Shown: one piece after another, positions 8,987 to 36,458 of the stretch
Numbering within the stretch: position 1 is the first letter of the stretch
Layout of the letters: the number at the start of each line of letters is the position of its first letter
Assembly: GCF_057098645.1 (NCBI RefSeq)
Contig: NZ_CM169472.1
Direction: 5' to 3' (one strand)
DNA: 64,000 nt
The notes under the pieces: model-generated
The model's database searches: none
What the model was told of the DNA's origin: nothing
What the model saw: the letters and a program-made list of their open reading frames with translations, nothing else
Position numbers and translations under genes: made by a program

Positions 8987-9969
8987 TTCCTGATTATTTA
9001 ACTTTTATTCGCTTTCAGGATAAACGAAATCTGATATACATTTATGCTATTGGACTTATTCTGATAGGCTTTTATTGGAAAAATGCAGGGTTTACTTTTC
9101 CATCAGAGGATATTGGTGTAGTTAGTGGGATTCTGGCCCTGGTGCTGTATAATTTTATTTTTGATCTCAAGGCGTACTGGGCTTATAAATGCGTCACGAA
9201 GAATATCGATTTTTCGTGGTTTAAGAAAAAGCAGAACCACAAAATAGAATTATTTCTTACACAACCTCTGGTGGCAGGATTTCTGTCGTTAATCATGTTG
9301 AGTGCAATGAGTTGGGGGCTATACCAGCTTCTACCCTCGTTATATGCGCTGTTCCTGATTTCGTTACTTGGGCCGTTGGTCATCTTTCTGTTGTTTCGGA
9401 TGATCCGCACCAGTTATGTCAAGCAGGTCGCTATTTCAGTAGCGAAAAAAGTAAAATATAAAAGTCTGACTCGCTATGTGCTGCTTTCGGTGTGTATCTC
9501 AACGGTTGTTAACCTGCTTACTATCAGCCCGTTGCGTAACAGTGATTCTTTTGTGACAGAGGGGCAGTGGTTAACGTTTAAATCGATAATTGCATTGCTC
9601 ATTCTTTGTGGCGTAGTGTTGGCGATTAATCTATTTTTTCTGCGCTTCTCCAAGCGGTACGCTTTTCTGGGCAGGCTTTTTTTGCAGGAAATCGATCTGT
9701 TTTTCTCCAGTGAAAATGCGTTGTCGACCTTTTTTGCCAAGCCGCTTTGGCTTCGGTTATTCATATTGCTGGTTATTGAAGTGATGTGGATTACGCTGGT
9801 GTCGGTATTGGCAACGCTTGTGGAATGGCGGATTTGGTTTGAAGCCTATTTTTTACTCTGCTATGTACCGTGCTTAATTTACTATTTTTTCCATTGTCGG
9901 TTCCTCTGGCATAACGATTTTATGATGGCATGTGACATGTATTTCCGTTGGGGGCATTTTAATAAGTGA
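8983..9969 (+). CDS. ycdU: Polytopic inner-membrane protein YcdU
   Basis: 328 aa, multiple hydrophobic helices; ATGA overlap with the acyltransferase gene; position upstream of serX. Confidence 0.75.
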
Positions 9970-10120
9970 GGAAGTTACAGAAAGTGACCAGATAGCGCAT
10001 ATATGTTCTGTACTCTCTTGCGCATTTTGATTGTTGACTGAGCAATCAGACAGTTGATGTGCACGATTTCCCCTCGCCCTAACAGACGTGGGCGGGGGCT
10101 CCCGATGTGTGCAATATACG

Positions 10121-10148
10121 AAAAAAAAGCCCGTACTTTCGTACGGGC
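10121..10148 (-). terminator. Rho-independent terminator downstream of serX
   Basis: Plus strand A8 then GCCCGTAC-TTTC-GTACGGGC; on the minus strand this is a hairpin followed by a U-run just past the tRNA 3' end. Confidence 0.7.
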
Positions 10149-10161
10149 TCTTCTTTAAATA

Positions 10162-10249
10162 TGGCGGTGAGGGGGGGATTCGAACCCCCGATACGTTGCC
10201 GTATACACACTTTCCAGGCGTGCTCCTTCAGCCACTCGGACACCTCACC
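10162..10249 (-). tRNA. serX: tRNA-Ser (anticodon GGA), 88 nt with long variable arm and encoded CCA
   Basis: Reverse complement reads GGTGAGGTGTCCGAGTGGCTGAAGGAGCACGCCTGGAAAGTGTG...GGTTCGAATCCCCCCCTCACCGCCA; T-arm GGTTCGAATCC present. Confidence 0.9.
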
Positions 10250-10443
10250 AAATTGTCGTTCCTGTCTTGCTGGAACGGGCGCTAATTTAGGGAAATCATG
10301 ACCTGAGGTCAACAAACTTTTTGAAAAAATCGCGCGTTTATTCAAACTTCAATCAATATGTGGTTTTAATAAGCGAAATCTGCTTTTTTTGCCACCGACC
10401 ACGGATTTGTTATGCTGGTGGTCTTTGTAGATGATAACGATAA

Positions 10444-13448: not shown

Positions 13449-14282
13449 TCAGGATTCTGGTGGAACCGACATATGGCGGTATTTAACCAGAATGTCATTC
13501 TGCCGTTCTGCTTTGTTCTGCAAATCCCACAGACCACGGTCGATACCATCATTAATCAGGAAAATGACCCCTGTTTCGATAGCCGACATCAGGCACAGCA
13601 TAACGGGTTCGTTTGAGGTGTAACCCACTTCCCCTTCCAGCAAGCGCTGGTAGTCAATAAAGCGGAAAACCCCGGCCTGAACTTCATAGGAAAGTATCGT
13701 CTTACTGGTGTTCACCGAGGAGAGGATCTCACCGGTACTCACATTGACGACGCGCAGGTTCACGGCAATCTGATCGAGCTGGTATTGCGTATCGGCACCG
13801 ATCCCAAAATATCTTGCCCCAACCCCGCCAGATTTGACGTTGCTTTCATAACCGATAATCGAACCTTCAACCATGATATTTGCCGCCGTTAAAGATTGCA
13901 GCGGGATTCGGTTATTAATGGCAACCGTGCCGTTTTCTTGTGCCGCACGAATAATCTTGCGCTCGTTAAGAAGGTTTTGTAAGCCCTGGCGCTCCAGCGG
14001 TATAAACCAGCGAGAATCTTTCAATGCCGTGACCAGCATTGCCGTGGCGCTTTGCGGAACAGCAGTGGAGAAGTTACTTGCCGGGTAGGGTTTAAATTGC
14101 CCGGTTTCGTCCTGAATGTTGTATACCGAAACAAAGATCTTACCCGTCGGCGCTGGCAGATGGGTCAAATCTTTGTAGCTCTGAGCTCGAGGCATTAATG
14201 TCGGTCTGGCGGCTTCTTTAGGCGGGGCGGTTAAGCATCCGCTCAGTAACATGACGGCAACCAAAAGAAATAAGCGCTGCAT
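13449..14282 (-). CDS. csgG: Curli secretion channel CsgG
   Basis: 277 aa; lipoprotein signal LLSGCLTAPPKE; product recognised. Confidence 0.95.
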   Translation of the reverse strand: MQRLFLLVAVMLLSGCLTAPPKEAARPTLMPRAQSYKDLTHLPAPTGKIFVSVYNIQDETGQFKPYPASNFSTAVPQSATAMLVTALKDSRWFIPLERQGLQNLLNERKIIRAAQENGTVAINNRIPLQSLTAANIMVEGSIIGYESNVKSGGVGARYFGIGADTQYQLDQIAVNLRVVNVSTGEILSSVNTSKTILSYEVQAGVFRFIDYQRLLEGEVGYTSNEPVMLCLMSAIETGVIFLINDGIDRGLWDLQNKAERQNDILVKYRHMSVPPES

Positions 14283-14308
14283 GATTATTTTCCTTATGAG
14301 GCTGGGGC

Positions 14309-14725
14309 TTAAAAATCGGTTGAGTTATTTTGTAAACCCGAAACCTGGATGGTCGAGGTTTGTCCGGTTTTACGATCTGTCACGTTCAACTGCAATTGAC
14401 CATCGCGGTTAGCAATATCAACAATATAATCGTTGGTCACCATGCGGCCCGGTTTACCGGTATTAATATTCGACAGTAGCCCACCTAAAATTTGTGACTG
14501 GATGGCCTGAGTAAAGTTATCTAACGCTGAGGGTGTTTCAATACCAAAGTCATCGTTATAGCTCGGATCTTTATAAGAGTTTTGGGCCTGAGCGCTATTT
14601 AATAAAAAAGCGCCATTATTTGGGTTACCACCAAAGTTTGGATTACGGAACTGAAAAGTCATGGTTCCAGCCCAACTTAATGGCGAAATAAGCATGAGTA
14701 GAACTACTGCATGTTTGACACGCAT
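14309..14725 (-). CDS. csgF: Curli assembly protein CsgF
   Basis: 138 aa; recognised. Confidence 0.93.
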
Positions 14726-14749
14726 TGCAGCCTCCGAACAATTTTTTAT

Positions 14750-15139
14750 TTAGAATTCATCATGCGCCAAATCGCCCGTACTTAATAACGCCTGATTTAT
14801 CTGGCGACGATTTAGTGCTTCTTCAGTTTGAATCAGTGCAAAGACGACAGTTTTCTCGAAGTCTCTTTTCAACGGGAATAAAAAAGTCTGGAAAATAACA
14901 TCCTGATTAACCGTTATTGTGATCCAGCTTCCCCATCGTGCACTGGGCCTTTCATTAATCGTTAAGTTACCCGTATAGTCACTTTCCCATTTATCACTAA
15001 AGGCTCGGTAAAAATCATGGCCAATAGATGAAACAATATGGTCAGTTAACAATCCCGGGACTTCTACCTCAACGGCGTGAAGATTCCCTGCGGCGAACAG
15101 AAATTCTGCCGCCACAATCCAGCGTAAATAACGTTTCAT
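14750..15139 (-). CDS. csgE: Curli assembly/secretion protein CsgE
   Basis: 129 aa; recognised. Confidence 0.93.
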
Positions 15140-15143
15140 GGCT

Positions 15144-15794
<651 letters not shown>

Positions 15795-16547
15795 GATGAA
15801 ACCCCGCTTTTTTTATTGATTGCACACCTGACAGCTGCCTCTAAAATAGAAGCACCAGAAGTACTGACAGATGTTGCACTGCTGTGTGTAGTAATAAATC
15901 AGCCCTAAATGGGTAAAATATAAAACTAATGGATTACATCTGATTTCAATCTAGCCATTACAAATCTTAAATCAAGTGTTAAACATGTAACTAAATGTAA
16001 CTCGTTATATTAAAATGTTAACATTAAGGTTCTATTAAGTTTAGAAATGATAGAAAAGTTGTACATTTGGTTTTTATTGCACAATTTTAAAAAATCATAC
16101 AAATGGTGATAACTTACTAATAATGCATATAAAAAATATTTCGGTGTAGTCCTTTCGTCATGTAAAACGTTCTTTTTTTTTCTCCACACCTCCGTGGACA
16201 ATTTTTTACTGCAAAAAGACGAGGTTTGTCACGGCTTGTGCGCAAGACATATCGCAGCAATCAGCGACGGGCAAGAAGAATGATTGTCTGGTGATTTTTG
16301 ATTGCGGAAAACCGAAATTTAAAAGAAAACAAAATATTTTTTGCGTAGATAACAACGTATTTACGTGGGTTTTAATACTTTGGTATGAACAAAAAAAGAA
16401 AAATACAACGCGCGGGTGAGTTATTAAAAATATTTCCGCAGACATACTTTCCATCGTAACGCAGCGTTAACAAAATACAGGTTGCGTTAACAACCAAGTT
16501 GAAATGATTTAATTTCTTAAATGTACGACCAGGTCCAGGGTGACAAC
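15795..16547. promoter_or_regulatory. csgD-csgB divergent intergenic regulatory region (~750 bp, AT-rich)
   Basis: Long AT-rich non-coding gap between divergent csgDEFG and csgBAC; only short spurious ORFs inside. Confidence 0.85.
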
Positions 16548-17003
16548 ATGAAAAACAAATTGTTATTTATGATGTTAACAATACTGGGTGCGCCTGGGAT
16601 TGCAGCCGCAGCAGGTTATGATTTAGCTAATTCAGAATATAACTTCGCGGTAAATGAATTGAGTAAGTCTTCATTTAATCAGGCAGCCATAATTGGTCAA
16701 GCTGGGACTAATAATAGTGCTCAGTTACGGCAGGGAGGCTCAAAACTTTTGGCGTTTGTTGCGCAAGAAGGTAGTAGCAACCGGGCAAAGATTGACCAGA
16801 CAGGAGATTATAACCTTGCATATATTGATCAGGCGGGCAATGCCAACGATGCCAGTATTTCGCAAGGTGCTTATGGTAATACTGCGATGATTATCCAGAA
16901 AGGTTCTGGTAATAAAGCAAATATTACACAGTATGGTACTCAAAAAACGGCAATTGTAGTGCAGAGACAGTCGCAAATGGCTATTCGCGTGACACAACGT
17001 TAA
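16548..17003 (+). CDS. csgB: Minor curlin nucleator CsgB
   Basis: ATG 16548 (MKNKLLFMMLTILGAPGIAAA) inside ORF 16521..17003; 151 aa. Confidence 0.93.
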   Translation: MKNKLLFMMLTILGAPGIAAAAGYDLANSEYNFAVNELSKSSFNQAAIIGQAGTNNSAQLRQGGSKLLAFVAQEGSSNRAKIDQTGDYNLAYIDQAGNANDASISQGAYGNTAMIIQKGSGNKANITQYGTQKTAIVVQRQSQMAIRVTQR

Positions 17004-17043: not shown

Positions 17044-17499
17044 ATGAAACTTTTAAAAGTAGCAGCAATTGCAGCAATCGTATTCTCTGGTAGCGCTCTG
17101 GCAGGTGTTGTTCCTCAGTACGGCGGCGGCGGTAACCACGGTGGTGGCGGTAATAATAGCGGCCCAAATTCAGAGCTGAACATTTACCAGTACGGTGGCG
17201 GTAACTCTGCACTTGCTCTGCAAACTGATGCCCGTAACTCTGACTTGACTATTACCCAGCATGGCGGTGGTAACGGTGCAGATGTTGGTCAGGGCTCAGA
17301 TGACAGCTCAATCGATCTGACCCAACGTGGCTTCGGTAACAGCGCCACTCTTGATCAGTGGAACGGCAAAAATTCTGAAATGACTGTTAAACAGTTCGGT
17401 GGCGGCAACGGTGCAGCGGTTGACCAGACTGCTTCTAATTCCACCGTCAACGTCACTCAGGTTGGCTTTGGTAACAACGCGACCGCTCATCAGTACTAA
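17044..17499 (+). CDS. csgA: Major curlin subunit CsgA
   Basis: 151 aa; five imperfect Gln/Asn-rich repeats. Confidence 0.95.
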   Translation: MKLLKVAAIAAIVFSGSALAGVVPQYGGGGNHGGGGNNSGPNSELNIYQYGGGNSALALQTDARNSDLTITQHGGGNGADVGQGSDDSSIDLTQRGFGNSATLDQWNGKNSEMTVKQFGGGNGAAVDQTASNSTVNVTQVGFGNNATAHQY

Positions 17500-17518
17500 T
17501 ACATCCTCTGTATTAAAG

Positions 17519-17545
17519 AAACAGGGCGCAAGCCCTGTTTTTTTT
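17519..17545 (+). terminator. Rho-independent terminator after csgA
   Basis: ACAGGGCGCAAGCCCTGT hairpin followed by T8. Confidence 0.8.
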
Positions 17546-17557
17546 CGGGAGAAGAAT

Positions 17558-17941
<384 letters not shown>

Positions 17942-21538: not shown

Positions 21539-21820
21539 ATATGGTTAACTAATCTCGGATTTTTCGTCTTATCCCTGTCGGGTTATGCCTTTAGGCTTGT
21601 TGCCATAGCGACACCGACCTGACCGCGCCAGGCGCAGGCTTCAAGGTTTTTATGCATAGCATCATCGCTACCACTAACCAGAATGGAAGCGTCTGTAAGA
21701 CGGTTGATAAATAAATTTGCTGGCAAACCCTACACGAAGTCGATGCTTCTGTCTTTAGGAGAAGCACGGAAAGTGAAAACGGTTGCAATCAGGTGCTTAA
21801 TCCATGAGCCAGCGTGCTGA

Positions 21821-26003
<4,183 letters not shown>

Positions 26004-26013
26004 AAACGTAGTT

Positions 26014-26113
26014 GCCTGATGCGCTACGCTTATCAGGCCTACATCGTTCCTGCAATTTATTGATTTTGCAAGATTTTGTAGGTTGGGTAAGGCGTTCACG
26101 TCGCATCTGGCAA
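26014..26113. repeat. RIP/BIME element: two REP palindromes flanking an IHF-type spacer
   Basis: GCCTGATGCGCTACGCTTATCAGGCCTAC ... CAATTTATTGATTTTGCAAG ... GTAGGTTGGGTAAGGCGTTCACGTCGCATCTGGCA. Confidence 0.8.
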
Positions 26114-31076: not shown

Positions 31077-31553
31077 TTATACTCCATAGTCAGATGACGA
31101 CTTTCCCAGCATGCGCTTCAGAGTGTCGTCTTTATCGATGAAATGATGCTTCAGGGCCATAAATCCGTGCATAACGGACAGTACTACGACGCTCCACGCG
31201 AGCCAAAAATGCAGGGCACCGGCAAAGTCTGCCTGTGCGCCAGCGTCGGCAAGGGTCGCGGGGACGTCAAACCAGCCAAAAACGCTGATCGGTTTACCAT
31301 CGGCAGTTGAGATCAGATAGCCGCTGATGCCGATGGCGAACAGCAATAGGTACAATGCGAGATGTCCAGCTTTTGCGGCAAGACGAGTCATGGGCGAATA
31401 ACTCGGCAGCGGACCCGGCGGTGGAGATATGACGCGCCACAGAACGCGAATAACCAGCCCCATCATTAACAAAATACCGATGCTTTTATGCAGTTCGGGT
31501 GCTTTGTGATACCAGCCATCGTAATAACTGAGCGTGACCATCCACAGACCTAA
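31077..31553 (-). pseudogene. yceJ: yceJ (cytochrome b561 homologue) 3' fragment, separated from its 5' end by IS5
   Basis: Annotated ORF 31077..31643 takes its first 30 codons from inside the IS; authentic yceJ sequence begins at the CTAA duplication (31550-31553). Confidence 0.8.
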
Positions 31554-32749
<1,196 letters not shown>

Positions 32750-36407: not shown

Positions 36408-36458
36408 TAATCTCTATGCTCCGGCTGAAGGGATGTTTTTGCCGGACACAAAGGATAA

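Follow-up and report, generated by a model that had tools for sequence, protein, structure and literature searches.

In the window, the 64,000-nucleotide stretch of contig NZ_CM169472.1 (RefSeq assembly GCF_057098645.1) analysed here, the open reading frame list and the sequence place a spacer of 753 bp (15795-16547) between the divergent curli operons csgDEFG and csgBAC. It is bordered by csgD (15144-15794, - strand, 216 aa) on one side and by csgB (16548-17003, + strand, 151 aa) on the other. The first-pass annotation had described about 750 bp of AT-rich, non-coding DNA separating the two operons, and this is exact. At 33.7%, the GC content of the spacer is below the 50.4% of the whole window and is the lowest value among all its 753-bp stretches; the 0.5% of such stretches that are equally AT-rich every one overlap the spacer, and in the csgD-proximal promoter part (209 bp) the GC content drops to 23%. 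The corresponding spacer of K-12 MG1655 (NC_000913.3 1103197-1103950) measures 754 bp, the length also given in the literature (PMC12713406), and has the same flanking genes in the same orientation, the same core elements and 98.4% identity. In the O157:H7 strain F6667, a member of the sister lineage, the spacer is also 753 bp long with the same architecture and carries 16 substitutions (2.1%). In the homologous 40 kb of strain C325, as annotated, no other gap between features is as long as the spacer; the runner-up measures 393 bp. Of 5,426 complete E. coli genomes, 5,371 match the spacer, in the same place and with 95-100% identity, and 5,329 contain at least 80% of its length. The other 55 genomes searched have no match whatsoever, and in one complete genome (strain P30_L1_05.20, NZ_CP085060.1) an IS1 element lies inside the spacer. 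Gene arrangement, an AT-rich length of about 750 bp and homology to K-12 all identify the region as the canonical divergent control region of the curli locus, long known as a regulatory hub.

The genes on either side are complete. csgG, csgF, csgE, csgD, csgB, csgA and csgC all have the K-12 length with intact stop codons. In csgE, csgF and csgG (13449-15139, - strand), which are full length, the sole amino-acid change relative to K-12 is CsgE T35I. CsgD differs from K-12 by S19P and S110A, and this protein allele (WP_000481500.1) is common to O157, O111 and others. On the + strand, CsgB carries V70F and S98N (window 16755-16757 and 16839-16841), which are specific to the O145 lineage; among the records fetched, the CsgB allele WP_001401245.1 occurs only in those of the O145 lineage. 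The same substitutions are given as F79 and N107 by Chen et al. 2013 (PMC3874044). csgA (17044-17499, + strand, 151 aa) encodes S134T and csgC (17558-17890, + strand, 110 aa) encodes T3A, V24M and P81Q. Downstream of csgA lies an intrinsic terminator (17515-17545, + strand) formed by a GC-rich hairpin of 13 pairs running into a U8 tract. Its predicted fold has an energy of -23.4 kcal/mol (z = -5.0), and 0 of 200 shuffled sequences fold as well. A simple promoter and terminator scan missed this terminator, since the stem extends into the T-run, and also missed the known csgD promoter (8/12 match); the scan was set aside as evidence and the csgA terminator was checked by folding instead. The earlier statement that both operons and the csgA terminator are intact is thus borne out.

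All core elements of the spacer are unchanged relative to K-12 in the alignment, comprising the -10 and -35 hexamers and start site of csgD, the OmpR repeats, the MlrA repeat and the CsgD box, together with the Shine-Dalgarno sequence, the A-tract and the distal sRNA site. The csgD core promoter (15948-15975, - strand) consists of a -10 hexamer TAGATT (15948-15953) and a -35-like TTGATT (15970-15975), an assignment that we take to be that of Hammar 1995 and Uhlich 2001. The start site is at 15941/15942 (- strand), where 15941 is the 5′ end of an Rfam match described below. The MlrA box (16054-16088, -112 to -146) is an imperfect inverted repeat, AAAAGTTGTACA-N12-TGCACAATTTT, identical to K-12; its consensus is presumably that of Ogasawara 2010. 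RM13514 has a C to T change at the equivalent of 16064, within the TGTACA half-site of this box, and RM12581, whose spacer has an equal identity to the window, probably shares it. Upstream of csgB, the CsgD box CGGGTGAGTTA (16413-16423, + strand) is likewise identical to K-12; the consensus is CGGGKGAGNKA, which we take to be that of Brombacher 2003.

The OmpR D1 site (15984-16004, - strand), identical to K-12, contains two copies of GTTACA in direct repeat, between about -42 and -62, in keeping with a published position near -51 (PMC13304067, PMC10002515). O157:H7 F6667 is altered in the OmpR repeat region at 15995 and 16003 and, unlike the window, has a perfect MqsA palindrome. The published IHF footprint extends from -37 to -96 and that of H-NS from +28 to -201 (PMC4894380); the coordinates for CpxR, IHF and H-NS are second-hand, via Soo and Wood 2013. 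H-NS binding to the spacer region is reported in two sources (PMC4894380, PMC3535384). On the basis of published K-12 footprints and of sequence identity at the core sites, binding of OmpR, MlrA, IHF, H-NS, CpxR and CsgD and transcription by sigma-S are predicted for the window. The - strand would then carry the csgDEFG promoter, dependent on sigma-S and sigma-70, activated by OmpR, MlrA and IHF and repressed by H-NS, CpxR and RcsB. Its transcript would begin with the 147-nt leader of csgD, a target of Hfq-dependent sRNAs, and the + strand would carry a CsgD-dependent csgBAC promoter.

The csgD 5′ untranslated leader occupies 15795-15941 (- strand). Its 147 nt agree with the published length of 147-148 nt, and the earlier description of it as an sRNA target holds for several sRNAs at once (PMC6061853, PMC4152358), the list comprising McaS, RprA, GcvB, OmrA/B, RydC and RybB. 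The first 92 nt of the leader (15850-15941) match the Rfam family ES056 (RF02752) over the whole model (1-92/92) with a score of 119.7 bits, above the gathering threshold of 43, and E = 2.8e-23. What Rfam lists as the ES056 sRNA is the 5′ portion of the leader of csgD and no independent gene, its 5′ end being the csgD start site. The distal sRNA pairing site, UUACUACACACAGCAGUGCAA (15874-15894, - strand), is identical to K-12 and complementary to the sRNAs, with predicted duplexes of -30.6 kcal/mol for McaS and -24.6 kcal/mol for RprA, calculated with the K-12 sRNA sequences and not those of the source strain. This distal McaS site is the only one needed in vivo (PMC6061853).

The sole difference from K-12 in the leader is a G to A substitution in the mRNA at -27 from the AUG (15821, - strand). 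Position -27 is the first base 3′ of the stem-loop SL1 (-83 to -28) and the start of the downstream RprA/McaS region (PMC4152358). An A is found here in 31 of 5,298 genomes, and every Escherichia and Citrobacter species representative fetched has a G. In folding predictions the A(-27):U(-84) pair has a probability of 0.65 compared with 0.16 for G.U, so that SL1 gains one base pair. The minimum and ensemble energies of the leader are equal within 0.2 kcal/mol between the two alleles, and the predicted openness of the Shine-Dalgarno sequence is little altered. Duplexes computed between whole leaders and sRNAs were unrealistically long, with the alleles no more than 2 kcal/mol apart, and local 23-nt targets were used instead; with these, the McaS, RprA, RybB and RydC duplexes shift by 0.4-1.8 kcal/mol. 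Because the position is invariant among these species representatives and the pairing probability rises from 0.16 to 0.65, the change at -27 need not be neutral.

Over the entire spacer, the window differs from K-12 by 11 substitutions and one 1-bp deletion. Identity to K-12 had been set beforehand as the outcome that would speak against strain-specific regulation, and the alignment, with its 12 differences, does not give it. In a comparison with 12 other alleles, eight of the positions are specific to the O145 lineage (15821, 16023, 16032, 16175, 16303, 16313, 16316 and 16355), although the change at 16303 is also found in one unrelated strain. The difference at 16284 is common to the window and one other strain, and those at 16294, at about 16336 (an extra T) and at 16391 are K-12 peculiarities or alleles shared by a minority. 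Among the 13 alleles the variable sites cluster between -50 and -450 of csgD. The most conserved parts of the spacer are the leader, with four variable sites, and the csgB-proximal 147 bp, with three. The spacer diverges by 1.6% from K-12 and by 2.1% from O157:H7, and the flanking genes by 0.4-2.9% and 0.2-5.5%, respectively. The spacer falls inside both ranges and therefore gives no sign of accelerated change or import.

Two of the lineage-specific substitutions lie close together in the block from -68 to -102 (16010-16044), where two CpxR boxes and part of an IHF site accompany the MqsA palindrome (16020-16031), with site coordinates taken from PMC4894380. The block reads AACATTAAGGTT in the window and AACCTTAAGGTT in K-12. 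The C to A change at 16023 alters the proposed MqsA operator at -78 from AACCT-TA-AGGTT to AACAT-TA-AGGTT (16020-16031), so the perfect AACCT/AGGTT arms are lost. The T to C change at 16032 falls on the outermost base of the CpxR box that spans -90 to -102. Both positions lie inside the IHF and H-NS footprints (coordinates from PMC4894380). Across the 5,426 genomes, the 38 bp around the palindrome occur in the exact K-12 form in 2,151, in a form with AATCT in 2,197 and in the form of the window in 25; the palindrome is perfect in about 40% of genomes, and AATCT is found in about 41%. Among 31 species representatives, conservation is lacking even between Escherichia clades, and in strain YJ6 the A at 16023 occurs by itself in an otherwise K-12-like sequence. 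These observations suggest that the CpxR/MqsA/IHF block is weakly constrained. The relevance of the MqsA site is disputed in any case: control of csgD by MqsA was not reproduced with low-copy expression or deletion (PMC6918082), and a csgBA reporter was unchanged by deleting cpxR, mqsR, basR, rcdA, rstA or btsR (PMC12713406). As modest independent evidence, the population counts favour the view that the operator proposed for MqsA at csgD is an unconserved site.

Further upstream of csgD, the lineage-specific G to T change at 16175 creates a run of nine T residues (16173-16181). The initial RcdA footprint, -192 to -308 (PMC3535384), corresponds to 16134-16250 of the window and includes 16175. 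The run is T8 in Z1323HEC0399, and the T9 form is a newly slippage-prone tract in the RcdA/H-NS region. The remaining differences, eight of the 12, are in a variable middle segment (16284-16391) at 16284, 16294, 16303, 16313, 16316, about 16336, 16355 and 16391. Among 13 E. coli alleles this is the most polymorphic part of the spacer; the difference at about 16336 is a 1-bp deletion in a T-run. No published footprint in the literature available matched the differences of this segment. In scans with the consensus sequences of Cra, IHF, Fis, RcdA and CsgD, only weak matches changed in score, each by one position, and these changes are regarded as noise.

The spacer allele is rare and belongs to the O145:H28 lineage or its close kin. 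Of about 5,370 complete E. coli genomes, 26 carry it at full length with at least 99.7% identity, the next best match being 98.7%. The spacer is identical in three of these genomes (the O145:H28 strains RM12761 and RM13516, and strain C325), and the others at this level comprise O145:H28/NM strains together with a few relatives that have no serotype assigned. Over 25 kb, Z1323HEC0399 and UTME-3 come closest among the complete genomes, neither of them identical. The csg locus of about 6 kb differs from that of the ST32 strain RM9872 at a single place, a run of A residues at 16126-16131 (about -185 of csgD) that is A6 in the window and other E. coli and A5 in ST32 O145:H28. The A5 form is found in RM9872, RM13514 and most other ST32 O145:H28 genomes. 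RM12761 is distinguished from the window by an IS3-family element within csgC and by an integrative element at tRNA-Ser (serX); the window has neither. In this outbreak strain the IS3-family element (21764-23410 of its locus) splits csgC, which is intact in the window.

The region is thus an ordinary one, a textbook hub, and its strain-specific allele too has already been described and assayed. Chen et al. 2013 sequenced the csgD-csgB spacer of 19 non-O157 STEC (PMC3874044). Two O145 strains formed a separate cluster, promoter types E and F, which are 1 bp apart (PMC3874044; GenBank KF680304-KF680323) and are accompanied by V to F and S to N changes in CsgB and three synonymous changes in csgD (PMC3874044). 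The CsgB changes and the 1-bp difference match the window and the A6/A5 pair, so that the allele of the window is presumably E or F and the A6/A5 difference at 16126-16131 may be the one that distinguishes them. Both types were active as multicopy csgD::lacZ fusions in a K-12 host (PMC3874044), assayed under conditions that do not induce curli (LB, 37 C). The strongest promoters were type E and that of O157, about 30% above the others, and promoter sequence variation was considered by the authors to play a small role (PMC3874044).

The first-pass annotation had concluded from the intact locus that curli production should be possible. This does not follow, because an intact locus in cis is by itself insufficient: curli production also needs MlrA, RpoS, OmpR and IHF (PMC12713406), each of them encoded outside the window. 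In O145:H28, mlrA is a prophage integration site, and at most one of seven complete genomes has it unoccupied (PMC7067040). The O145 strains of Chen et al., with alleles like that of the window, have prophage insertions in mlrA, are white on Congo red and are curli-negative (PMC3874044). They were not rescued by mlrA in trans and their RpoS is wild type, a result that the authors left unexplained (PMC3874044). A cause in cis, by which the csg alleles of the lineage would themselves make O145 STEC curli-negative, is decidedly unlikely; candidates for it would be the G to A change at -27, the paired changes in the CpxR/IHF block and the CsgB nucleator substitutions V70F and S98N. The practical caution is that an intact curli locus is no predictor of curli where mlrA is usually interrupted by a prophage.

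With a probability of about 85%, the region is best read as the canonical curli control region in the allele of the O145:H28 lineage, whose differences from K-12 most likely leave csgD expression unaltered or change it by a small amount. The 12 differences lie in poorly conserved or accessory sites, and every core element is as in K-12. The anatomy, the identity of the core elements, the distribution of the allele and the placing of its differences against published footprints are shown directly; functional neutrality we infer from the O145 reporter fusions, the absence of conservation where the changes lie and the small predicted changes in RNA energy. Counting against it are the change at -27, the two substitutions that fall together in the CpxR/MqsA/IHF block, the use of multicopy fusions in a K-12 host in the published assays and the unexplained curli-negative state of the O145 strains tested. 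The csg spacer of Salmonella (S. Typhi and invasive non-typhoidal strains) likewise carries a few fixed lineage SNPs in regulator sites (PMC13304067, PMC6611641). Some of those hit OmpR D1 or the promoter, with effects that have been shown, whereas the core sites of the window are untouched. It is unlikely that the lineage SNPs instead rewire csgD control, in which case O145:H28 would regulate curli unlike K-12. On that account the changes at 16023 and 16032 would weaken repressor sites between -78 and -102 (MqsA, CpxR and BasR-like) and relieve repression, and the change at -27 would extend SL1 and alter access of sRNAs or ribosomes. It is favoured by the altered MqsA palindrome and the substitution at the CpxR box edge, by consensus scores that fall from 10/10 to 9/10 for MqsA and from 11/12 to 10/12 for a BasR-like site, by the conservation of G(-27) across Escherichia and Citrobacter with the change in pairing probability, and by the place of O145 type E among the two most active promoters (PMC3874044). 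Yet the palindrome is polymorphic in the species (about 40% perfect, about 41% AATCT), the control of csgD by MqsA was not reproduced (PMC6918082), deletions of cpxR, basR, rcdA and mqsR had no reporter effect (PMC12713406), the differences between promoter types are about 30% and minor according to the authors (PMC3874044), and the predicted energy changes are small. The best candidate for such rewiring, at low probability, is the change at -27.

The length and the base composition of the spacer could each be given another explanation. An unannotated gene for a small protein or a further sRNA, which would account for the length, is a very remote prospect, even though the open reading frame list contains spacer frames of 63, 47, 82, 42 and 41 aa and a hairpin followed by a T-run stands at 16183-16198. 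The 82-aa frame (16206-16454) spans the 1-bp indel between K-12 and the window and the 63-aa frame spans the A-run and T-run indels that vary within the lineage, so that these frames are not maintained between strains. With permissive settings, an Rfam scan of the spacer returns ES056 alone, and terminator-like matches are not enriched (4 against 2.4 +/- 1.4 expected from shuffles). A hidden gene was rejected on the unconserved frames and the Rfam scan. The terminator-like element itself is an inverted repeat, TCCAC-N6-GTGGA, with a T-run (16183-16198, + strand) in the middle of the spacer. More remote still is the proposal that the AT-rich spacer is foreign DNA acquired horizontally, as a GC content 17 points under the window mean and the binding of H-NS might suggest. 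The spacer occupies the same place in nearly all E. coli (5,371 of 5,426, with 95-100% identity), the core of the leader adjoins csgD in 31 other species representatives, and the spacer has no mobile-element features and a divergence like that of its neighbours. Foreign origin is excluded on its conserved position and on the presence of the leader in those other species. The canonical control region in its O145:H28 form thus remains the preferred reading; its significance hardly goes beyond annotation, and its use is as a precise map of the allele differences from K-12.

Other features of the window set it apart from or ally it with particular strains. Positions 1-10250 are without the serX-associated integrative element (cah island) of RM12761 and C325. 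The tRNA-Ser gene (10165-10249) is adjoined by a beta-ketoacyl-synthase/ABC-transporter/ACP-malonyltransferase cluster and ycdU, a neighbourhood that is the same in Z1323HEC0399, UTME-3, O55:H7 and O157:H7. An IS5-type insertion sequence (31553-32749), with a transposase open reading frame at 31701-32681 on the - strand, lies between yceJ and yceO and is not present there in RM12761 or C325. Elsewhere in the window, Rfam matches at gathering level are found for ES036 (26035-26077, - strand), the PyrC leader (36408-36457, - strand), the rne 5′ UTR (58189-58525, - strand) and SraB (60387-60555, + strand).
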